DNA of 64,000 nt from an uncultured Candidatus Saccharibacteria bacterium (GCA_964356545.1 CAYHHX010000001.1:1918-65917), one strand, 5' to 3'. Shown: positions 5,560-55,475, counted from the first letter of the stretch. The notes: generated by a model from the letters alone, not told the origin. Numbers and translations are program-made.

Positions 5560-6165
5560 ATGGATTTGAGTCAATTGACGGAAGAAGATTTTAAAGTATA
5601 TTTAATAAAAAAATTAAATAGAATATATAGTGGGTGGATTGATGGAGACAAAAATAATATTACAAACAAAACGGCCGATCTAATAAATGAACCGCTAAAA
5701 TTTGCGATTGAAATAAAAGATGACAAAACATACAAACATAAGTTTCCTCCCTTGACTGGAGAAATGATCACTAGTGGACTAGATTTGAACAATAAAAGTG
5801 AACAGTTTAAGAATCATGCAAGAGATGCAAATAAAAAATTCAAAAATTATTTAAATTATAAAACAATACTTTTAATTCGTACAGAATTAATAAATATTCC
5901 TCTTGATGTTATCGGTTATATCTTTAGCGGTATGCAGAGATTTATTAAGCCAGGTAACCGACTCATGGAAATAGGAAGAAAAAATAAGTTCCTTTCTAAA
6001 ACTAATACTACTGAAATAGGTTGCTATTTATTATTTGGGAACAATAACTATTTTTATATTGAAAATCCGAATGCAAGTTTACATAGAATTGTTTATGAAA
6101 ATATTGTAGAAAAGATATTTCAAGAAAAATTAGAAAAAATAAGAATTAATTATAAAGTAAAATAA
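5560..6165 (+). CDS. Hypothetical protein.
   Basis: 201-aa ORF in an operon-like position. Its stop overlaps the rnhA start (ATGA). No recognisable motif. Confidence 0.4.
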   Translation: MDLSQLTEEDFKVYLIKKLNRIYSGWIDGDKNNITNKTADLINEPLKFAIEIKDDKTYKHKFPPLTGEMITSGLDLNNKSEQFKNHARDANKKFKNYLNYKTILLIRTELINIPLDVIGYIFSGMQRFIKPGNRLMEIGRKNKFLSKTNTTEIGCYLLFGNNNYFYIENPNASLHRIVYENIVEKIFQEKLEKIRINYKVK

Positions 6166-6608
6166 TGAAGAAAATAATTATTTATACAGACGGAGGGTCG
6201 AGAGGAAATCCTGGTAAAGCGGCGCTTGGGGTTGTTTTTTGTAATGAAAAAGAACAGGTTATAAAAAAATACGGAGAATACTTGGGCGATAATTTAACAA
6301 ATAATGAAGCAGAGTATTCAGCTGTAATTTTTGCCCTAAAAAAGTTTAAGGCGTTTTTTGGTAAAGCCGTAGCAGAAATTAGTGAAATTGAAATAAGATC
6401 TGATTCGGAATTATTGGTAAAACAAATGAATGGCGAATATAAAATTTTAGACGAAAAAATTCAAAAGTTTTTTATAGAAATTTGGAATTTAAAAATGGAT
6501 TTTAAGGCAGTAAAATTTAAGTCTATTCCCAGAGAAAATAACAAAGAAGCCGATAGAATGGTAAACGAGGCCTTAGACGGCCACGCAGGGAGTCAAAAGT
6601 TATTTTAA
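6165..6608 (+). CDS. rnhA: Ribonuclease HI.
   Basis: 'IYTDGGSRGNPG', 'EAEYSAVIFAL', 'IRSDSELLVKQMNGEYK' and 'EADRMVNEAL' match the RNase H catalytic DEDD layout. Confidence 0.8.
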   Translation: MKKIIIYTDGGSRGNPGKAALGVVFCNEKEQVIKKYGEYLGDNLTNNEAEYSAVIFALKKFKAFFGKAVAEISEIEIRSDSELLVKQMNGEYKILDEKIQKFFIEIWNLKMDFKAVKFKSIPRENNKEADRMVNEALDGHAGSQKLF

Positions 6609-6618
6609 ATTCACATCT

Positions 6619-6647
6619 TGACAACCACCATTAATAGGTGTATAATT
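6619..6647 (+). promoter_or_regulatory. Consensus sigma70 promoter (TTGACA-N17-TATAAT) at the head of the G+C-rich island.
   Basis: Sequence 'cTTGACAaccaccattaataggtgTATAATt' is a perfect -35/-10 with a 17-nt spacer. The spacer contains the REP half-site 'caaccaccatt'. Confidence 0.6.
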
Positions 6648-6797
6648 AAGTAGTAGTTAAGAATAGCACTTTTACAACATAAATTACTTGCAAGAAAACA
6701 GTCATAGCCAAAAGCTATTAAGAAATTGATAGTTTTTGGCTATGACTGCCAACTTCGGAAGTCAAGCACACACTTTTTTCAAGAAAAGGATGACGCC

Positions 6798-7040
6798 ATG
6801 ACAAAGCTCGTGACCGCATCGCAACAGCTCATGACCGACGGCCAGATCGACAACATCGTCGACAAGTTTCGTGCCGCCCTCCGCAAGCATCGTTCTGAGA
6901 TTTCCTTGAACATTGCCCAGGAGATCGTCGGTATTGAGAACCTCGGCATGGAGTGCTACGAGCCGATTCGTAAGCATGTGGAAGCTCGGAGTAATCAGAT
7001 TGTTCGTATCGTCAATGTCAATCGTATTCGTAGTGCGTAG
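6798..7040 (+). CDS. Hypothetical 80-aa protein in the G+C-rich island.
   Basis: ATG at 6798 preceded by 'aaaagga' as an SD. G+C-rich codon usage is unlike the flanks. Ends at TAG 7038-7040, in frame with the next ORF. Confidence 0.45.
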   Translation: MTKLVTASQQLMTDGQIDNIVDKFRAALRKHRSEISLNIAQEIVGIENLGMECYEPIRKHVEARSNQIVRIVNVNRIRSA

Positions 7041-7064
7041 GCAGCGCTCAATGCCACTGGTTGT

Positions 7065-7412
7065 GTGCAGTACATCGACCGTAAGGTCGTGGACAGCATG
7101 CCACGCGGCGAAGGCAAAGAAGTCGAAGTCGTATTCTTCAACCTCGGCCGATACATCAGCGACGCCGACCTCGACAAGGAGTACGAACTGCTTGGTTTCA
7201 AACCAGCAGATCCCTACTCTTTGTCCGCAGTCAACGAAGAAGATCAGGCATTTGCCGACACCAAGCCCAACGCCACTCATTGGAAGGACGAGAATGGCAA
7301 GTTGTGTTATGCCGCCTTCGACCGGTGGTTCGGCGTCGAGCGGTACGTGCGTGTCCGCCGCTTCGGCATTGGCTGGCGTGGCCACTGGTGGTTTGCTGGC
7401 GTCAGCAAGTAA
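7065..7412 (+). CDS. Hypothetical acidic protein, same frame as 6798..7040. The two may be one gene interrupted by, or reading through, the amber codon.
   Basis: Sense-looking G+C-rich ORF ('...DENGKLCYAAFDRWFGVERYVRVRRFGIGWRGHWWF'). Starts are GTG 7065 or ATG 7098. Followed by a perfect intrinsic terminator. Confidence 0.4.
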   Translation: MQYIDRKVVDSMPRGEGKEVEVVFFNLGRYISDADLDKEYELLGFKPADPYSLSAVNEEDQAFADTKPNATHWKDENGKLCYAAFDRWFGVERYVRVRRFGIGWRGHWWFAGVSK

Positions 7413-7488
7413 TCTTCAGGTCGTTCAGACTCTGAGAGTCTTCAGACTCGAAGAGTTGCCCTTGGTTTCTTGAACCTTCGGCAACAAA

Positions 7489-7528
7489 GTCCTGTTTTGC
7501 AATTGCAAAACAGGACTTCTTTTTTTTG
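7489..7528 (+). terminator. Rho-independent terminator closing the G+C-rich island.
   Basis: 'agtcctgttttgcaa|ttgcaaaacaggact' is a 15-bp perfect stem followed by T8. Confidence 0.75.
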
Positions 7529-7701
7529 TTTCAATATGATAATATAATAATCGGATAGTAGGCTATTATCAAGTCTGCGGTCAAGGCTTCAGACAACCCA
7601 ATTCCATATTTCAGGATTGTGTAGATCGGCCTCCTAAAACATGGCAACACAAAGAAGATTAAAGGTGTGGTCTTAAAATTATACAGTCAAAACTTTATTG
7701 C

Positions 7702-7730
7702 TTGACAAAGGTGTTTTTAATTAGTACTAT
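7702..7730 (+). promoter_or_regulatory. Promoter of rnpB.
   Basis: TTGACA (7702-7707), 17-nt spacer, TACTAT (7725-7730). The inferred TSS coincides with the P1 helix start. Confidence 0.5.
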
Positions 7731-7736
7731 ATAAAT

Positions 7737-8184
7737 ATCTTAACAAGATGAGTGATTGCTCTTTATTAAATTGAGGAGAGGAAAGTCCGAACACCATCCT
7801 GAACTGATTTATCAGTGAAGGATAAAATAGTAGTGGCTAACAGCCATCCATAGTAATATGCGAGGTGCGAACAGTGACGCCGAGTTTCGAAAGAAACAAG
7901 GCACCGAGTATATAAATTTATTTATGTGCGAGGTGAATTCAACTGAAAAGTTGAAGTGAAACGGCTAAATCCTTATTGGGTGCAAGAACAAAGTCCCGCC
8001 CCCTAAGCAGTTAATTTTTATCAGGAAAAACCTGAGAGAGCTCTAATAGATATATTTTTTTGAGTTCTTGAATTACAGCATAGGGGGCGGGATTAAAAGT
8101 AGTTCGCTTGAATCAAGAAGTAATTCTTGGTCTAGACAGATAATCACATAAAACAGAATTCGGCTTACGGTCTTGTTAAGATAA
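7737..8184 (+). ncRNA. rnpB: RNase P RNA, bacterial type A.
   Basis: P4 strands 'GAGGAAAGTCCGaACac' (~7783) and 'ACAGAAttCGGCTTAcGG' (~8153). The P1 helix is formed by 7737-7748 'atcttaacaaga' pairing with 8171-8182 'tcttgttaagat'. Confidence 0.85.
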
Positions 8185-8185
8185 C

Positions 8186-8216
8186 TAAAAACAGAGAATT
8201 TATCTCTGTTTTTAGT
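8186..8216 (+). terminator. Intrinsic terminator after rnpB.
   Basis: 'aaaaacagagaatttatctctgttttt' is a hairpin followed by a T-run. Confidence 0.7.
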
Positions 8217-8275
8217 TTATAAAAGAGAGATAAAAGAATTGTAAAATCTAAAAAAAAAGATTAATATAAAAAACT

Positions 8276-8971
8276 ATGGAGTTAAATCCAAATCCAGGTA
8301 AAAATTTAATCATTGAAGTTGATGGTAGAAAATTTGCCAGGTATCCTGTACGGACAAAATTAATAACACCAGAAGACAAAGACATCTCTTTGATTGTTAA
8401 AGAATATGTGGCCTTGCACCTTATGCCAAAAGATATTGTTTTTATAAGCGAAAAAGCTGTTTCTGTAACTCAGGGCAGGTCTTATCCTAAGAAAGAAATC
8501 ATTACGACAAAAATGGCAAATTTTTTATCGCGTTTTGTAACAAAAACTCCAATTGGCATAGGACTAGGGTCGCCTGAAACAATGCAGTTGGCTATTGAAG
8601 AAGTAGGATTATTAAGAATTTTAGTAGCTTCTTTTTTTGGATATTTTTTTAAAATTTTTAATATTAAAGGAGTGTTTTATATAATAGCAGGAAGTAAAGT
8701 AAGGTCTATTGATGGAGCGGTTGAATATGCTATACCGCCATATAATACTTATGTTTCAAAGGGTCCGCTAAAAGCAAATAAGGTGGCAGAAAAAATTTCA
8801 GAAGTATTGAAAACGCCTGTTGTTATTGTTGACGCAAATGATTTTGGAGTAAATATTTTAGGGATTAGTCAAGGTATTGATAAAAAATTAATCGCTAAAA
8901 TTATTAAAGATAATCCTTTGGGGCAGTCAGATGAGCAAACTCCCATAGGCATTATCCGGGAAATTTTTTAA
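8276..8971 (+). CDS. CofE / F420-0:gamma-glutamyl ligase-like family protein.
   Basis: C-terminal 'VDANDFGVNILGISQG...GQSDEQTPIGII' resembles the CofE-family nucleotide-binding region. Size ~230 aa fits that family. Confidence 0.4.
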   Translation: MELNPNPGKNLIIEVDGRKFARYPVRTKLITPEDKDISLIVKEYVALHLMPKDIVFISEKAVSVTQGRSYPKKEIITTKMANFLSRFVTKTPIGIGLGSPETMQLAIEEVGLLRILVASFFGYFFKIFNIKGVFYIIAGSKVRSIDGAVEYAIPPYNTYVSKGPLKANKVAEKISEVLKTPVVIVDANDFGVNILGISQGIDKKLIAKIIKDNPLGQSDEQTPIGIIREIF

Positions 8972-14935: not shown

Positions 14936-15081
14936 CTGAACTCGTTTGATTGGTAGGAGGGCTTTTGTCCTTATTATCTCCGTTTTCAAACACTTATCAA
15001 ATGTGAGCGGCAGTAATGCCGTCTTTTTTGAAAATATTGATTATTTTATTGATAGATGGTACCATAAATAAAGTAAAGGTA

Positions 15082-15222
15082 ATGGAAATAAGAAAACAGA
15101 TTTTTATTTATAAAAATTCAAAGGTTGAAAATTTAATGTTTCAAGTTTTTTCTATTATTTATCATAAATATCACGAGAAAAGTTTTTCTCTTTTAAAAAA
15201 TATTTCTGGAAGTTTTATTTAA
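15082..15222 (+). CDS. Conserved small protein (46 aa). Divergent copy A of a four-member repeated unit.
   Basis: Aligns codon by codon with the copies at 44364, 49220 and 54666 (I-R/E-K/R-Q-I-F/Y...KNSKV...MF...FS...KY-H/Q-EKS-F/L-SL...IS...F-I). The differences are mostly synonymous or conservative (GAG/GAA, AAA/AAG, TTT/TTC). SD 'aaagg' upstream. Confidence 0.5.
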   Translation: MEIRKQIFIYKNSKVENLMFQVFSIIYHKYHEKSFSLLKNISGSFI

Positions 15223-15252
15223 AAATACACCCATTAGTGGGTGTATTTTTTT
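15223..15252 (+). terminator. Intrinsic terminator of repeated unit A.
   Basis: 'atacacccattagtgggtgtat' hairpin plus T7. The same hairpin, with compensatory loop changes, ends all four units. Confidence 0.7.
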
Positions 15253-15270
15253 GGGGACATCTTAGAAAAC

Positions 15271-36921: not shown

Positions 36922-37341
36922 GTGACAAACGACGAAAAAGCCATGTATACTGGCATGGCCATGTCGCGCAATACAGAGGTTACACTGCGGTGGTCACGGA
37001 GTCAGATGTTTATGATCATCAATTCGGCCATGCTTTCAGTCGTGTTCACGCGGGACGCGAGTTTCTTGTTACTTCTTTTCCTTGGCCTCTTTGGCATAGG
37101 AATAGCACTGGTATGGCTGATGATCAATGAAAAAAGTCAGCAGTGGGTTGAATACTGGCAGACTCGCTTGGCGCAGATTAAGCACGAAGAAGAACCTGCC
37201 ACCGTTAATGTGTTCATTGGTCCAGAATGGGACACCATCAACAAAGGGTGGACGTTTCATAGGCTACTTACGATCCTGCCTAGGGGATTCGCCATAGTCT
37301 GGATCGGCGTGTTTCTTTTTTCTTTCACTCGGCTTTTCTAA
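36922..37341 (+). CDS. Hypothetical membrane protein in the G+C-rich island.
   Basis: G+C-rich ORF with hydrophobic segments. Preceded by the promoter-like 'TTGACAaaagtagaaagccatgaTAATAA' (36846-36874) and SD 'aaaggaag'. The start codon is ambiguous (GTG 36922 or ATG 36946). Confidence 0.4.
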   Translation: MTNDEKAMYTGMAMSRNTEVTLRWSRSQMFMIINSAMLSVVFTRDASFLLLLFLGLFGIGIALVWLMINEKSQQWVEYWQTRLAQIKHEEEPATVNVFIGPEWDTINKGWTFHRLLTILPRGFAIVWIGVFLFSFTRLF

Positions 37342-37354
37342 AGGATGACCTTCT

Positions 37355-37630
37355 ATGATGAAGAATTTCAGAGAAATGACCTGGAGGCTCGTACTGGGTC
37401 ATCTGTTCTTTTTTTTCCTGGGAGTAATCGCTCTCACCACAGTCGTAGTCGTTGTTGGCTCCGGACGCGAAAAACTAGGTGATGCCATTGGCGTCATCTC
37501 TCTCGGAATGTCTTACATGATTACCTCTATTATTTCTTTTCTCTGGTTCCTGCTTGAGAAGAGAAAGGAAGGAAATAACCCAGATACCTCTCAATATCAA
37601 AAGCAAAAGGAGTTGACCGTTACTCATTGA
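37355..37630 (+). CDS. Hypothetical small membrane protein.
   Basis: SD 'aaaggatga' upstream. Two TM helices. Followed by the terminator 'aagccccggttctacggaatcagggcttttt' (37651-37688). Confidence 0.4.
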   Translation: MMKNFREMTWRLVLGHLFFFFLGVIALTTVVVVVGSGREKLGDAIGVISLGMSYMITSIISFLWFLLEKRKEGNNPDTSQYQKQKELTVTH

Positions 37631-37692
37631 AAACGGTCGTTAAAATCAACAAGCCCCGGTTCTACGGAATCAGGGCTTTTTATTTTCTGCGT

Positions 37693-37733
37693 GAGAAATG
37701 GGGACAGCTACTATCCTTTGTGATATGATATAC
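37693..37733. repeat. REP element with the 'tttgtgatatgatatac' extension, at the right edge of the G+C-rich island.
   Basis: 'gagaaatggggacagctactatcctttgtgatatgatatac'. Confidence 0.6.
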
Positions 37734-37818
37734 TAAATAAAGGTAAAGAATATAGTATGTGCGTACATCTTGACACGATTTCATTTTCTGCTATACTTTA
37801 CTTAGGTAAAGTAAACAT

Positions 37819-38139
37819 ATGAAAAGCTGGTATACTAAGACAACTAAAGATCTGTTTGAAGCAATCCTTCAATTAAAGGACGTGGGAGAAACTAAAAGGT
37901 TTTTCCGTGATTTGCTTACTGAAGCGGAAATTATCGAATTTAGCAAACGGTGGCAAACCGCACAAATGCTTAATGAAAATATCTCATATGAAAAGATAGA
38001 AAAAGTTACTGGTTTAAGCTCAAGAACCGTTGCCAGAATTTCCAAATGGCTCAACGAAGGAATGGGCGGTTATAAATTAATGCTCAATAAACTGAACCAT
38101 CATCACAGCTCCATCCAAACAGGAAGGGGATTATCTTGA
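37819..38139 (+). CDS. TrpR-like / YerC-YecD family DNA-binding protein.
   Basis: 'FFRDLLTEAEIIEFSKRWQTAQMLNENISYEKIEKVTGLSSRTVARISKWL' is the YerC/TrpR HTH family pattern. Confidence 0.65.
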   Translation: MKSWYTKTTKDLFEAILQLKDVGETKRFFRDLLTEAEIIEFSKRWQTAQMLNENISYEKIEKVTGLSSRTVARISKWLNEGMGGYKLMLNKLNHHHSSIQTGRGLS

Positions 38140-38244
38140 TGTGTAACTAAAATGTAACATAAAGCTAACCTTCTCCTTGTTTGGAGAGGGTTTTTTATTT
38201 GCCTGCCCAAAAGGCAAAACAGTTCTTTGAAGGGGGAGAGAATT

Positions 38245-39132
38245 ATGCAAAGACTCATCAGCTACTTTACAGATGGAATCACTTCGCGGACGCTCCAAAC
38301 CATTGGAGCGGAAGTTGAAACCCAGTTTGTGGATAAAAATGGTGTGGCCATCCAAACACAAACGTCTCAGCAAATGCTAGGATACCTTGCCAAAAACGGA
38401 TGGAAGGTGGATTGCCTTAAAGGCAGCCTGATAACCGCCCTTGTTGATCGGGGTGGTAACAAAATATTCTACGAGCTTGGCAGGCACAACATAGAGGTTT
38501 CCACAGCAGCTTCGACATTGGATTGTGTGTTGGGCGTCGCCAAAAAGTGTCTTGCCCAAATTTATCAAGTTGCTTGGATGTTCGGTGTGGAGCCATATTT
38601 CGCACCGATACTCTTCGGCGACGAAGATTTACTGGTTATTCCTGACGAAAGGGACGCAACTTGGTTGGAACTGGATGGACGAAAAGCGCTGGCTCCGCTT
38701 GCGCGCACGTCGTCTGTCCAATTCACATTCTCGGTTGCCATACAAGATGCCGTGAGAATATTGAACGGATTCGGAGAACGGATCGAATCGTTCTTGGCGG
38801 ATTTTCCACAGGACGTTGTCTGGAAACGATACATCTCGGATTCGTTTGCGGGATATCTTCCTGATCGCTATGGCGGCCCGCTGATGTTTGAGTCATTGGA
38901 GGGTTATTGCCGAGCTCTTGTTCGACACGATGTCATTCAAGGATCGCGTTTTGTGACGTTTCCGAACGCAAGTGATTTGGACATCTCTCTCTATCTGCGC
39001 AGTATCTGGTGGCACTTCAGGCTCAAGCGTTACAGCAACGCTTTGTGCATTGAGGCACGGCCCATGGCTCGCAGGGCGGACGAGCAATTCCAGTGCCAGC
39101 TGGATAGAGTATTGGAAATTGTCTGCGCATAA
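38245..39132 (+). CDS. Carboxylate-amine ligase of the glutamate-cysteine ligase family 2 (GCS2/YbdK-like), short form.
   Basis: N-terminal 'TIGAEVETQFVD' (compare GCS2 'LGVEEEFxLVD') and C-terminal 'CIEARPMARR' (compare 'xxExRxxD'). The gene is G+C-rich. Start at ATG 38245 after 'gggggagag'. Confidence 0.45.
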   Translation: MQRLISYFTDGITSRTLQTIGAEVETQFVDKNGVAIQTQTSQQMLGYLAKNGWKVDCLKGSLITALVDRGGNKIFYELGRHNIEVSTAASTLDCVLGVAKKCLAQIYQVAWMFGVEPYFAPILFGDEDLLVIPDERDATWLELDGRKALAPLARTSSVQFTFSVAIQDAVRILNGFGERIESFLADFPQDVVWKRYISDSFAGYLPDRYGGPLMFESLEGYCRALVRHDVIQGSRFVTFPNASDLDISLYLRSIWWHFRLKRYSNALCIEARPMARRADEQFQCQLDRVLEIVCA

Positions 39133-44029: not shown

Positions 44030-44363
44030 CACATTGGTTTGCGTAAAGGCGAATGATTTTATAGGAGTAACTCGTAGTTACTCCTTTTTATTTTCTGAAT
44101 TTATCACTATTCTTTCCTACTTTTCTTTGTCCGGAGATGAAAAAAAATGTCATTAATCAGTTAGTTACCCAGTACGAAAGAACTTTTGGCAAAGCACCCC
44201 ATGAATTATGCAAAGAGGTTGTCCAAGATTTAATAGCAGAAATGCCCCCAGAAGAAATTCCTTCAAGTTTAAAGTAAGTACTATTTAGTACACCAGTGGC
44301 CATAGTGTTGTTTTTTTGAAAAAACTGTTGATTGTTTTACTAACAGGTGGTATTATTAGCATA

Positions 44364-44513
44364 ATGAAGACAATAGAAAGAGGTAAGCAGATTTATATGC
44401 ATAAAAATTCAAAGGTTGGAATTTCAATGTTCCGCGCTTTTTCTAGTGTTCCTGATAAATATCAGGAAAAGAGTCTTTCTCTTTCAAAAAGTATTTCTGA
44501 AAATTTTATTTAA
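44364..44513 (+). CDS. Conserved small protein (49 aa), copy B of the repeated unit.
   Basis: Near-identical to copies C and D. Promoter TTGATT-N17-TATTAT lies directly upstream, giving a leaderless or near-leaderless start. Terminator at 44514-44543. Confidence 0.5.
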   Translation: MKTIERGKQIYMHKNSKVGISMFRAFSSVPDKYQEKSLSLSKSISENFI

Positions 44514-44543
44514 AAATACACTCATTAGCGGGTGTATTTTTTT
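44514..44543 (+). terminator. Intrinsic terminator of unit B.
   Basis: 'aatacactcattagcgggtgtattttttt'. Confidence 0.7.
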
Positions 44544-44545
44544 AA

Positions 44546-44620
44546 AAATTATGCATTTTGGAGAACATTTAACAATCGATGGATACGGTGGTAACTTTGA
44601 AAAGCTAAATGATGAAGAAT
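44546..44620 (+). pseudogene. 5' fragment of a pyruvoyl-dependent S-adenosylmethionine decarboxylase-like gene (speH/speD-like), truncated by a REP.
   Basis: 'MHFGEHLTIDGYGGNFEKLNDEE' matches the AdoMetDC N-terminus pattern G-x-H-L-x-x-D/E-x-Y-G-C/G-x-F-x-K-L-N-D. The frame then runs into the REP at 44617-44650. Confidence 0.45.
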
Positions 44621-49120: not shown

Positions 49121-49183
49121 ATTTAATATTTTTTATTTGAATAAAATAATTAAGTGGCTATAGTGTTGTTTTTTTAAAAACTG

Positions 49184-49212
49184 TTGATTGTTTTATTGAC
49201 AGGTGGTATTAT
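49184..49212 (+). promoter_or_regulatory. Promoter of repeated unit C (TTGATT-N17-TATTAT). The same arrangement is present in units B and D.
   Basis: TTGATT 49184-49189, 17-nt spacer, TATTAT 49207-49212. The ATG at 49220 sits ~7 nt downstream, so the transcript would be leaderless. Confidence 0.5.
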
Positions 49213-49219
49213 TAGCACG

Positions 49220-49369
49220 ATGAAGACAATAGAAAGAGGTAAGCAGATTTATACGCATAAAAATTCAAAGGTTGGAATTTCAATGTTCCGCGCTTTTTCT
49301 AGTGTTCCTGATAAATATCAGGAAAAGAGTCTTTCTCTTTCAAAAAGTATTTCTGAAAATTTTACTTAA
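49220..49369 (+). CDS. Conserved small protein (49 aa), copy C. Identical to copy D.
   Basis: MKTIERGKQIYTHKNSKVGISMFRAFSSVPDKYQEKSLSLSKSISENFT. See copies A and B for the selection argument. Confidence 0.5.
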   Translation: MKTIERGKQIYTHKNSKVGISMFRAFSSVPDKYQEKSLSLSKSISENFT

Positions 49370-49398
49370 AAATACACCAATTAGCAGGTGTATTTTTT
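49369..49398 (+). terminator. Intrinsic terminator of unit C.
   Basis: 'aatacaccaattagcaggtgtatttttt'. The stem is preserved relative to units A and B despite loop changes. Confidence 0.7.
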
Positions 49399-49415
49399 GA
49401 TTAAGTTAATGATTA

Positions 49416-50670: not shown

Positions 50671-50839
50671 AGTACACGAGGGGTGCATACATCTGCATCC
50701 CTTTTTCTTTATTATTTTTCTAGATAGTTATAAAATATATATCTTTATGTAGGGGTGGTAGAGGGATTACTAATTTGGGTGCAACCAAATTATTTAAAGG
50801 TTCAACTCCTTTCCCCTACTCTGCCATTTTTTAATAAAA

Positions 50840-52921: not shown

Positions 52922-53067
52922 ATATTTATTCTATAAAAAGTGATGTAAGTTGACTAATTATTTCAATAGTGATAAATTAAACACAATTCAATTGCACCTT
53001 AAAAACTTAATAAAGTACGGGCGATTGATTGCAAGCATGGTCTATGAAACAACGAAAGGAAAATCTC

Positions 53068-54453
53068 ATGTCTCAGTCAGTCTACCTCTTTGATACCTAT
53101 CAAAGAGAGAAAAGGTTGTTCATTCCACTTGAACAAGGCAATATCAAGATATACACTTGTGGACCCACGGTGTATGACTACCCGCACATCGGCAATCTCC
53201 GTGCATACATTTTTGCGGATGTTCTTCGCAGGATGTTTGAATACAACGGATACAAAGTGCGACACGTGATCAATATCACTGATGTTGGTCATCTTACCTC
53301 TGATTCTGACTACGGCGAGGACAAAATGGAGTTAAGTGCCCAGAGACAAAAGCGTTCTGCATTAGAGATCGCCGATTTGTATACGGGAATCTTTAAACAG
53401 AATCTTTTTGACCTCAACATCAAAGATCCTACTGTCTGGTGCAAGGCGACCGATCACATCAGTGAGCAGATTGTCTTGATCCAACGGTTGGAGAAGGCTG
53501 GGTATACATATTTGACTTCCGACGGTGTCTACTTTGACACCTCTAAGCTGTCAAACTACGGTTATCTTGCTCGTTTGGATGTTGAAGGAATCGAGCCAGG
53601 TGCTCGGGTTGAGTTGGGAGAAAAAAGGAATCCGACCGACTTCGCACTTTGGAAACTCTCTCCGAAAGAGAAGACAAGGCAGATGGAATGGCCGAGTCCA
53701 TGGGGGGCTGGATTTCCTGGCTGGCACATTGAGTGCAGTGCTATGGCGATGAAGTACTTGGGAGAGATGATAGATGTTCACACTGGTGGCATTGATCATA
53801 TTCCAGTACATCATACTAATGAAATAGCGCAGTCGGAGTCCGTAACCGGTCAGAAGTTCGTCAACTACTGGCTACATGTGGCGTTTCTGACTGTCGAAAG
53901 TCAGAAAATGTCAAAGAGCGCAGGGACATTTATTACCTTGCAAGAGGTTATCGATCGTCACTACGACCCTTTGGCGTTTCGCTACATGGCACTGACTTCT
54001 CACTACCGCGCTGGTCTAAATTTCACATGGGATGGATTAAAGGGTGCTCAAAAGGCACTCGCCTCCTTACGTGAAAAGGTGTCTCAGTACCAGCGCAAAG
54101 AGGTGGCACCTGACGAAGAATCTCTGACGGAGTTTAGGAGTCGCATTAACAATGATCTGAACACTCCCCAAGCTTTGGCGTTTCTATTTGAGGTTGTCAG
54201 GTCAAATTTGCTTGACACTGTCAAGCGGGCAACCATGCTTGAGTTTGACAAGGTGCTGGGGCTCAAGTTGGATCAAGTTTCGGCGGAAAGCGATGTACCG
54301 CAAGATGTGGTGGAGCTCTTGGTCCAACGCCAACAGTTCCGCAGGGAGAAAAATTGGAAGGAATCCGACCGCGTTCGTCAGGAGATCGTCGCTAAAGGAT
54401 ACGATGTCGAAGATACGCCTGAAAGGTCACGAGTTGTCAAAAAAGGGTTGTAA
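53068..54453 (+). CDS. cysS: Cysteinyl-tRNA synthetase.
   Basis: HIGH-class motif 'PHIGNLRAY', 'KMSKSAGTF' and a CysRS-like zinc site 'WHIECSAM'. Start at ATG 53068 after SD 'aaaggaaa'. The gene is markedly more G+C-rich than its flanks. Confidence 0.85.
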   Translation: MSQSVYLFDTYQREKRLFIPLEQGNIKIYTCGPTVYDYPHIGNLRAYIFADVLRRMFEYNGYKVRHVINITDVGHLTSDSDYGEDKMELSAQRQKRSALEIADLYTGIFKQNLFDLNIKDPTVWCKATDHISEQIVLIQRLEKAGYTYLTSDGVYFDTSKLSNYGYLARLDVEGIEPGARVELGEKRNPTDFALWKLSPKEKTRQMEWPSPWGAGFPGWHIECSAMAMKYLGEMIDVHTGGIDHIPVHHTNEIAQSESVTGQKFVNYWLHVAFLTVESQKMSKSAGTFITLQEVIDRHYDPLAFRYMALTSHYRAGLNFTWDGLKGAQKALASLREKVSQYQRKEVAPDEESLTEFRSRINNDLNTPQALAFLFEVVRSNLLDTVKRATMLEFDKVLGLKLDQVSAESDVPQDVVELLVQRQQFRREKNWKESDRVRQEIVAKGYDVEDTPERSRVVKKGL

Positions 54454-54555: not shown

Positions 54556-54665
54556 GACAATAAAATAGAAACAGAAATAAAATCTATTTTGAAATTAAGT
54601 GGCTTACCGTCGCTTTTTTTTAAAAACTGTTGATTGTTTTATTGACAGGTGGTATTATTAGCACG

Positions 54666-54815
54666 ATGAAGACAATAGAAAGAGGTAAGCAGATTTATAC
54701 GCATAAAAATTCAAAGGTTGGAATTTCAATGTTCCGCGCTTTTTCTAGTGTTCCTGATAAATATCAGGAAAAGAGTCTTTCTCTTTCAAAAAGTATTTCT
54801 GAAAATTTTACTTAA
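54666..54815 (+). CDS. Conserved small protein (49 aa), copy D.
   Basis: Identical to copy C, including the promoter (54630-54658). Terminator at 54815-54846. Confidence 0.5.
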   Translation: MKTIERGKQIYTHKNSKVGISMFRAFSSVPDKYQEKSLSLSKSISENFT

Positions 54816-54857
54816 AAATACACCAATTAGCAGGTGTATTTTTTGATTAAGTTAATG

Positions 54858-55475
54858 ATTGATTTTACAGATTCAAAATCGGTAATTGGGCTCATCGCAG
54901 GCATTATTGCTTTTACGGCTTATATTATCTATATAATTTCAATATTAAAAGGCAGAACCAAGCCAAATAGGTCAACTTGGTGGATTTGGTCGTTTATGGG
55001 ATTGGTGGTTGGACTAAGTTATTATTTATCAGGCGCCGTTAATACTATTTGGGTTCCAGTAGTTGAGTTTATAGGGCCATTATCTATTGCACTATTGTCT
55101 GTAAAATATGGAGAAGGGAAGTTGAGCGATAAAACAGACTTAATTTGTCTCGTTGGCGCGGTTTTGAGTGTAATTTTATGGATAATATTTAATAATCCTG
55201 TTATTGCTTTAGTAACCAATTTAGCGGCCGATTCATTTGCTATTGTTCCTACTATTAAAAAATCATATTTACGACCAGAAGGAGAAGATTTTTGGGCATG
55301 GCTTGGCACAGGCACCGCCGACAGTTTGAATTTCTTTGCTGTTGAAAGATTTTCCTTTGCGATTCTTATTTATCCGATTTATATGCTCGTTTCAGACCTT
55401 ATTATAGTTATAGTATTATTAATGAAGAAAAAAGATATTATGAAAGATACTAGTTTTCTTAGAAAAAAAATATGA
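54858..55475 (+). CDS. Hypothetical multi-pass membrane protein whose start codon lies inside the 3' end of repeated unit D.
   Basis: The ATG at 54858 is the same 'gttaATGatt' that precedes the AdoMetDC-like fragment in unit C. About six hydrophobic helices. Confidence 0.45.
   Translation: MDFTDSKSVIGLIAGIIAFTAYIIYIISILKGRTKPNRSTWWIWSFMGLVVGLSYYLSGAVNTIWVPVVEFIGPLSIALLSVKYGEGKLSDKTDLICLVGAVLSVILWIIFNNPVIALVTNLAADSFAIVPTIKKSYLRPEGEDFWAWLGTGTADSLNFFAVERFSFAILIYPIYMLVSDLIIVIVLLMKKKDIMKDTSFLRKKI

Follow-up and report, generated by a model that had tools for sequence, protein, structure and literature searches.

The question raised by a 64,000-nt stretch of DNA from an uncultured Candidatus Saccharibacteria bacterium (GCA_964356545.1, CAYHHX010000001.1:1918-65917; hereafter the window, with positions counted from its first nucleotide) is what to make of a G+C-rich cassette of about 0.9 kb that carries a consensus promoter, an intrinsic terminator and two open reading frames (ORFs) joined in frame across a single TAG. 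An initial annotation, made from the sequence alone, had considered acquired cargo, a phage or defence-related module, a gene using amber readthrough or recoding, and a recently inactivated gene. Our analysis indicates that the cassette is very probably the surviving, orphaned target gene of a decayed diversity-generating retroelement (DGR) that lacks its template and its reverse transcriptase (RT) and has been broken by a CAG to TAG change, and not a case of recoding.

The basic description of the cassette proved largely accurate. In the G+C profile of the window, 6751-7500 has a G+C content of 0.51–0.55 and the flanks of about 0.27–0.33, confirming a G+C-rich segment in an A+T-rich genome and a composition clearly different from that of the contig, rather than statistically indistinguishable from it. 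The fused ORF has a G+C content of 0.55, with 0.68 at third codon positions (GC3) and a third-position C frequency (C3) of 0.43; none of the 60 ORFs in the window that reach 120 aa has a GC3 this high (median 0.27), and the values for four neighbours, encoding Fic, RNase H, an F420-ligase-like protein and MurJ, are 0.20–0.28. The perfect TTGACA-N17-TATAAT promoter was found as described, one base to the left of its original placement. It is the single perfect match to TTGACA-N16-18-TATAAT on either strand of the 64 kb, where shuffled sequences predict 0.11, and subfamily relatives carry a similar TTGACA...GGTGTATAAT about 170–185 nt 5' of the start codon; we would expect this element to be an active promoter. 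The terminator and its T8 tract (7520-7527) likewise stand, but the stem (7487-7518) is 14 rather than 15 bp long and the coordinates shift slightly. The first ORF extends from the ATG at 6798 to the TAG at 7038-7040 (80 codons), and the second, in the same frame, from a GTG at 7065, which follows the TAG after eight sense codons, to 7412 (115 aa); fusion across the TAG yields 204 aa, as originally stated. Structured RNA was also considered as an account of the G+C-rich block and rejected, given that Rfam searches (gathering threshold and E ≤ 1) returned only RNase P RNA, tRNAs and meaningless microRNA-hairpin matches, the last of these to the two long stems.

Searching a collection of 5.8 billion proteins with the fused 204-aa product recovered 201 relatives, all unannotated. 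Among the matches listed, the proteins are about 200 aa long, mostly with 95–100% query coverage, and share 50–72% identity with the query; the named relatives are Patescibacteria, for example, Staskawiczbacteria and Paceibacterota. All of them are single ORFs, none split in two, the opposite of the consistently separate pairs of genes that would have spoken against a joined product. With the 80-aa, 115-aa or fused product or with homologues as queries, Pfam, PHROGs, PADLOC and NCBIfam yielded no significant match, and a PDB sequence-profile search gave no match. To obtain a fold, we modelled the 72%-identical homologue P0001 as a stand-in for the window product. The C-terminal half of the predicted model (pLDDT 89) resembles proteins of the C-type-lectin fold, including the DGR variable proteins TvpA and Mtd, and would thus display the variable region (VR) at the end of the gene on such a fold. 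In the alignment, fixed scaffold residues of the C-terminal consensus FxRWxxxERxVxVxRxxxxWxxxWWFAGxRK alternate with hypervariable ones, and, in our reading of the window sequence, the hypervariable codons of this stretch are mostly NNC, a combination that constitutes the signature of a DGR variable region.

The connection to DGRs became explicit in 80 related loci taken from species-representative genomes (designated here by L numbers). In about 40 of the 80, an RT gene lies 0.9–1.5 kb downstream of the homologous gene, and these loci contain a template repeat (TR) 75–91% identical to the last 100 nt of that gene, with the TR/VR mismatches falling nearly always at TR adenines (e.g., 18/18, 20/21 and 13/13). 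In L002/L004, the homologue is accompanied by a 102-nt repeat, the TR, located 514 nt downstream, by bAvd and by an RVT_1 RT; in our reading of the alignment, all differences between VR and TR inside the repeat coincide with TR adenines, and a count over 100 nt places 14 of 16 mismatches at TR adenines. The closest relative, L089 (72% identity), likewise lies in a complete DGR, which includes bAvd, the start of an RT, a TR and a leader; bAvd (PF22296) was found in both L002 and L089. Across the family, the variable alignment columns correspond to adenine-templated codons, and the window protein shares 64–72% full-length identity with proteins whose C-terminal VR pairs with a TR.

These loci show that an intact element has two units. 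One is a self-contained, strongly promoted and terminated gene for a variable protein of ~200 aa, whose last ~100 nt (the VR) encode the ligand-binding face of the C-type-lectin-like domain. The other comprises a structured leader RNA of ~225 nt, the TR, an Avd gene on the opposite strand and the RT. The mechanism is that of known DGRs: the RT, acting with Avd, reverse-transcribes the TR RNA and places random bases opposite its adenines, and the resulting cDNA overwrites the VR, changing ~14 AAC/AAT/GAC-templated codons on the surface of the lectin fold.

In the window, the VR is present, and its codons at family-variable positions are, in our reading of the alignment, mostly NNC or NNT where templates carry AAC, AAT or GAC. 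Ungapped scans of both strands and a repeat finder detected no template-like copy of 7260-7412 in the 64 kb (best ungapped match, 64/153), and tblastn with the family RT gave no match in the 64 kb at E 1e-5. Avd is absent from 7528-7740, which contains only a leader stub and an RT remnant; ORFs of the window beyond this interval were not scanned for it. An exact-pattern scan with the invariant 22-nt 3' end of the VR, made in a collection of metagenome contigs that does not fully cover the sample, retrieved another copy of this locus plus a single further homologue, and no TR. Thus, three components of a functional DGR, namely, the RT, the TR/VR pair and Avd, are missing from the locus.

What remains downstream of the terminator shows how they could have been lost. 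A TATAAT at 7547-7552 immediately precedes the leader stub, in which homology to the leaders of relatives ends at ~7625-7628. The adjoining RT remnant is 63–71% identical to RT residues 309-327 of L004 and 309-325 of L061 (E 1e-4 and 2e-5, respectively, with a 241-nt subject) and fits the family-wide C-terminal motif SYLGLLKHGNTxKLK. Because the leader stub runs straight into the RT remnant, we conclude that a single in-place deletion of ~1.6 kb joined leader nucleotide ~75 to RT codon ~305. It took out the TR and avd together with the remainder of the leader and almost the entire RT, such that the target gene can no longer be diversified from its own locus. Decay of this type recurs in the family: in L015 and L078, a leader stub abuts an RT remnant, L050, L063 and L067 retain leader stubs only, and L059 has kept the leader but no more than a fragment of the RT.

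The genomic slot between the RNase H gene and the RNase P RNA provides a further comparison. In L072, the same order holds with an intact DGR (target, TR and RT) between RNase H and RNase P RNA, the latter starting ~110 nt past the RT, and in L002, the interval is empty, spanning 175 nt, with the DGR of that genome ~9 kb away. RNase H directly adjoins the target gene in three loci (L072:7345-10976, L051:261-1431 and 6165-8183 of the window), and the possibilities for this shared adjacency include an ancestral site, a preferred insertion site and a functional link to RNase H.

The remaining target gene is itself interrupted. Gln81 is among the near-invariant columns (at least 90%) of a 30-sequence alignment, and no homologue has a stop at the position of the TAG; with a near-invariant Gln in the relatives, the change in the window amounts to a single C-to-T substitution, CAG to TAG, as would be expected where a G+C-rich gene sits in a genome biased towards A+T. 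The intact reading frame required of a DGR target is therefore broken at codon 81. The metagenomes containing the locus were derived from the groundwater of a single well (Hainich H41), where 6001-8300 is 100% identical in two contigs from other assemblies and a third contig, from another assembly still, carries an identical gene, TAG included. The TAG and the VR are accordingly the same in four assemblies, that is, the window and these three contigs; the repeated TAG is not a one-off assembly error, and the uniform VR gives no hint of continuing diversification.

In the 85 copies of the gene that were examined, premature stops are confined to three that have neither a TR nor an intact RT: the window (Gln81, TAG), L035 (Gln16, CAA to TAA) and L059 (two stops), the stops in the latter two being TAA and at codons other than that of the window. 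The difference between 3 of ~27 orphan copies and 0 of ~44 TR-bearing copies is marginal (Fisher P ~0.05, calculated by hand). Of the options initially raised, that of a recently inactivated gene is the one these comparisons favour, with single-ORF homologues of ~200 aa carrying a near-invariant Gln where the window has its TAG. Inactivation appears to be recent because the protein is otherwise not significantly more degraded than its relatives: of 60 near-invariant columns, it departs from the family at 5, a deviation matched or exceeded by 25 of 116 homologues. On the same figures, relaxed selection beyond the TAG, which we also considered, is not supported statistically. The nonsense mutation would have arisen after the ~1.6-kb deletion or at about the same time. 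We infer this order of events, as we do transcription, the loss of function and the lack of a second DGR acting in trans.

Several considerations weigh against reading the cassette as the broken remnant of a decayed DGR. The RT-remnant match is short, 17–19 aa, yet it is collinear, lies in the expected place and covers the most conserved C-terminal motif. L072 is distant (its RNase H is 45% identical), and the shared slot could reflect independent insertion rather than common descent. Loss of function hangs on one codon, the rest of the protein being not significantly more degraded, and any minority CAG alleles or VR variants would go unseen in consensus assemblies. The metagenome scan for a TR is incomplete, as the collection did not return the longer contigs of the window itself. 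Finally, the visible sequence is limited to 64 kb, and an intact DGR elsewhere in the genome could act on the VR in trans.

The last point leads to an alternative that we regard as unlikely, in which the gene is a live remote target, its local TR and RT lost and its VR diversified by a DGR located elsewhere, with a TAG that is recent and possibly polymorphic. Such arrangements appear to exist among the relatives: the VR of the orphan L069 matches the TR of L049 on the same contig, and the VR of L008 matches the TR of L057 in the same metagenome-assembled genome, with mismatches mostly at adenines in both cases. The intact promoter, ribosome-binding site, 3' hairpins and terminator of the window cassette would suit a working target, as would its protein, which is not significantly degraded. 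Against this, neither a TR nor an RT was found in the 64 kb, the scan with the 22-nt 3' end of the VR, within its incomplete coverage of the sample, turned up no TR, the VR is identical and the nonsense codon fixed in all four assemblies, and the locus bears the scars of its own deleted RT. The L069 orphan (1219-1598), which shares its contig with the L049 DGR, has kept the whole leader without a TR or RT and shows, ~140 nt past the leader, a 25-nt duplicate of the end of the VR and the stop-codon region.

Having identified the cassette as a probable decayed DGR target, we asked what its G+C richness means. In 31 loci with intact DGRs, the target gene has a mean G+C content of 0.57 and a GC3 of 0.67, compared with 0.40 and 0.43 for the adjacent RT and a G+C content of 0.45 for the rest of the locus. 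RT G+C content tracks that of the host (r = 0.78) far more closely than target-gene G+C content does (r = 0.32; same 31 loci), high target-gene GC3 persists across hosts with locus G+C contents of 0.34–0.59, and the enrichment is mainly in C-ending codons. Adenine depletion outside the VR was examined as a cause and left no clear footprint, with C3 at 0.39, A3 at 0.15 against T3 at 0.20, and A exceeding T overall. High G+C content is thus a family-wide property decoupled from the host and, as such, not evidence of recent acquisition. The early suggestion of acquired cargo or of a phage or defence module holds only insofar as the cassette belongs to a DGR; a DGR is a diversification system and not a defence system, and G+C content alone does not testify to recent acquisition. 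Elsewhere in the window (36922-39132 and 53029-54453), raised GC3 was also noted for genes encoding an 8xMP membrane-protein homologue (0.58), an unannotated 301-aa ORF (0.53) and cysteinyl-tRNA synthetase (0.52), and these genes may have been horizontally acquired.

Movement of the target gene as such is a separate matter. A module of ~975 nt takes in the promoter, 5' untranslated region (UTR), target gene and terminator, together with the initial ~55 nt of the leader. Its copies at L067:7798-8767 and L055:7794-8767 are 93% identical, and the 7.7-kb upstream flanks of the two loci share no DNA or protein similarity; a TR is present in L055 and absent from L067. This comparison points to transfer or relocation of the target module in one piece, and the ~1-kb module thus appears to be mobile on some timescale. 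It would be a considerable step further, and one we find quite improbable, to view the orphan ~1-kb module, from the promoter to the leader stub, as a discrete unit that moves between genomes or sites, owes its lasting G+C and C3 richness to selection or to a retroelement-linked process from which the RT is exempt, can be re-armed in trans and forms a standing reserve of variable-protein genes in which the TAG is transient or polymorphic.

The remaining alternatives accept the two ORFs as they stand. A split into two working genes, with an 80-aa helical fragment and a 115-aa lectin-like domain acting together, is very hard to sustain. The break does fall in what the model predicts to be a linker between the helical part and the C-terminal domain, and a GTG is available eight codons past the stop, but no Shine-Dalgarno sequence precedes GTG 7065, no homologue is split there, and an ORF starting at this GTG would lose the conserved ATG(R)xQY strand that opens the domain. 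Programmed amber readthrough or recoding would turn the same two in-frame ORFs, with the single TAG between them, into one 204-aa protein, which is the natural full-length form of the family. Nevertheless, this proposal of the initial annotation found no support and is exceedingly improbable: the homologues have Gln and no stop at this site, the family's other premature stops are TAA and occur at different codons, TAG behaves as an ordinary stop in this genome, where it ends 6 of the 36 long open frames of the window, and a tRNA scan of the 64-kb window found no tRNA with a CUA anticodon. It is about as hard to credit that the TAG is an assembly or sequencing artefact in an intact gene, although a single base change would restore CAG, given the identical sequence in different assemblies from the same well and the lack of any near-identical intact protein among the 5.8 billion searched, where the best match is 72% identical.

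The expression signals of the orphaned gene are well preserved. Its 5' UTR has a folding z-score of -6.6, and comparison of the conserved stem-loop (Table 1) in 9 related loci revealed sequence conservation in its lower stem and compensatory changes (CG/UA, AU/CG) in its upper stem. The block (A/G)GGATGACGCCATG, encompassing the Shine-Dalgarno sequence, spacer and start codon, precedes almost every homologue despite protein identity of ~50%, and pairing is predicted between an upstream pyrimidine tract and the Shine-Dalgarno region. We also noted an ATG at 6743, in the 3' arm of the hairpin, which in our reading starts a 19-codon upstream ORF with a TGA overlapping the main ATG. The 3' UTR has a folding z-score of -6.9, and most family members have a similar stem-loop a few nucleotides past the stop codon, followed by the terminator; by analogy with the hairpin downstream of the Bordetella VR (PMC3240598), these 3' stem-loops may have a role in target-site recognition. 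With an undamaged promoter, ribosome-binding site and terminator, the locus probably continues to be transcribed. The expected translation product is limited to the N-terminal helical fragment of 80 aa: a Shine-Dalgarno sequence is absent ahead of GTG 7065, the genome uses TAG as a normal stop, and the tRNA scan of the window gave no CUA anticodon.

Table 1. Features of the orphaned DGR target locus and its immediate flanks (window coordinates).
Feature	Position	Strand	Remarks
RNase H gene, host, left flank	6165..6608	+	Pfam RNase_H / RVT_3
Sigma-70 consensus promoter TTGACA-N17-TATAAT of the target gene	6618..6646	+	only perfect match in the window
5'-UTR stem-loop, 23 bp, conserved in the subfamily	6699..6748	+	folding and covariation
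Ribosome-binding block AAAGGATGACGCC and ATG	6785..6800	+	nearly invariant in the family
DGR target (variable-protein) gene, 204 codons, nonsense-interrupted	6798..7412	+	N-terminal three-helix part and C-terminal C-type-lectin-like domain (predicted)
Premature TAG in place of conserved Gln (CAG), codon 81	7038..7040	+	alignment and four assemblies
Variable region (VR), no cognate template in the window	7312..7409	+	aligns to the TRs of L002/L004 and L089
Two 3'-UTR stem-loops	7413..7485 (7413-7454, 7455-7485)	+	between stop codon and terminator
Intrinsic terminator, 14-bp stem, 4-nt loop and T8	7487..7527	+	position conserved across the family
Truncated DGR template-RNA leader, 5' ~75 nt	7553..7628	+	aligns to the leaders of L004, L061 and L089
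RT gene remnant, last 26 codons and stop	7625..7705	+	translation IGLLKHGNTKKIKGVVLKLYSQNFIA, then stop; begins IGLLKHGNTKKIK...
RNase P RNA, host, right flank	7740..8183	+	Rfam RF00010

The leader, of which the window retains only the 5' part, turned out to be a conserved structured RNA of ~225 nt located between the target terminator and the TR (L006:8738-8963 and its equivalents in ~50 loci) and present in essentially every full DGR of the family. Its features include the motif GGyAGUAGGyGAAU and a pair of similar hairpins, spaced 52 nt apart, whose loop is GGUYAMGGYU. A further hairpin has the sequence CUUC-A7-UGAAG, and a long-range stem of 12 bp closes just before the TR. Compensatory changes were observed in 41 of the 56 predicted pairs across 30 loci, and no match to this RNA was found in Rfam. 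The leader is probably the upstream part of the DGR RNA that binds the RT and Avd, and plausibly the counterpart of the upstream RNA segment needed by the Bordetella RT-Avd (PMC6182149; bioRxiv 10.1101/2023.10.23.563531).

The state of the locus also shows in public data. The existing gene calls consist of a wrong-frame 165-aa ORF and an antisense 207-aa ORF (L083, L084), that is, the broken G+C-rich gene misleads gene callers. Two independent contigs from the same organism end within the 5' UTR of the cassette, L085 at 6658 and L086 at 6700, and these contig breaks suggest that the cassette may also disrupt assembly. Elsewhere in the window, ARAGORN predicts a tRNA-like gene at 50749-50821 with an undetermined anticodon ('gc' at position 33) and an apparent 6-nt anticodon loop; it is not a CUA suppressor and has no match to the Rfam tRNA model at the gathering threshold. 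A direct-repeat family of 246 nt with inverted repeats is present in four copies, 74–100% identical (15022-15267, 44313-44558, 49169-49414 and 54615-54860), and further repeats of 63–102 nt occur at 57.7–60.0 kb.

The first catalogue of DGRs in the Candidate Phyla Radiation (CPR) is reportedly that of Paul and colleagues in 2017, and the Staskawiczbacteria genome with L002/L004 presumably belongs to the genome series used in published surveys of CPR DGRs. That example (MHOR01000029.1, Candidatus Staskawiczbacteria RIFCSPHIGHO2_02_FULL_34_10) has a target of the same family, with 64% identity, and shares with the window the layout of promoter, 5'-UTR hairpin, gene, 3' hairpins, terminator and leader as well as the C-terminal VR with AAC/AAT/GAC-templated codons. 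In contrast to the CPR DGR, the window locus has neither a TR nor avd, retains just 26 codons of the RT and bears a nonsense codon in its target. The CPR DGRs correspond to the 'CPR set' of Wu et al. 2018 (PMC5758913) and to DGR clade 2 of Roux et al. 2021 (PMC8144416), and the window locus is a decayed member of this already catalogued clade. As described for CPR targets by Roux et al. (PMC8144416), the target protein of the window has no signal peptide, transmembrane segment or Pfam domain.

Among more distant systems, the DGR of Bordetella phage BPP-1 (mtd/avd/TR/brt) has in common with the relatives of the window locus the adenine-specific transfer from TR to VR, Avd, a variable protein of the C-type-lectin fold that has its VR at the C-terminus, stem-loops shortly after the VR and a structured RNA flanking the TR, needed by RT-Avd (PMC6182149; bioRxiv 10.1101/2023.10.23.563531). 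Remote-target DGRs, such as Treponema denticola TvpA and its paralogues (PMC5758913), have targets without an adjacent TR or RT, as is the case here; unlike those, the window target has been orphaned by deletion of a local RT module that left scars, and no trans TR is in evidence.

These findings account for a foreign-looking cassette as a DGR caught in mid-decay, with deletion scars that show exactly what has gone. They imply that strongly promoted, G+C-rich islands in A+T-rich Patescibacteria can be DGR target genes, that broken target genes of this kind get misannotated by gene callers, and that in-frame stops within them should not be read as recoding. Of wider interest than the locus itself are two by-products at the level of the family, the host-decoupled codon usage of the target genes and the covarying leader RNA absent from Rfam, both of which bear on the expression and assembly of CPR DGRs.

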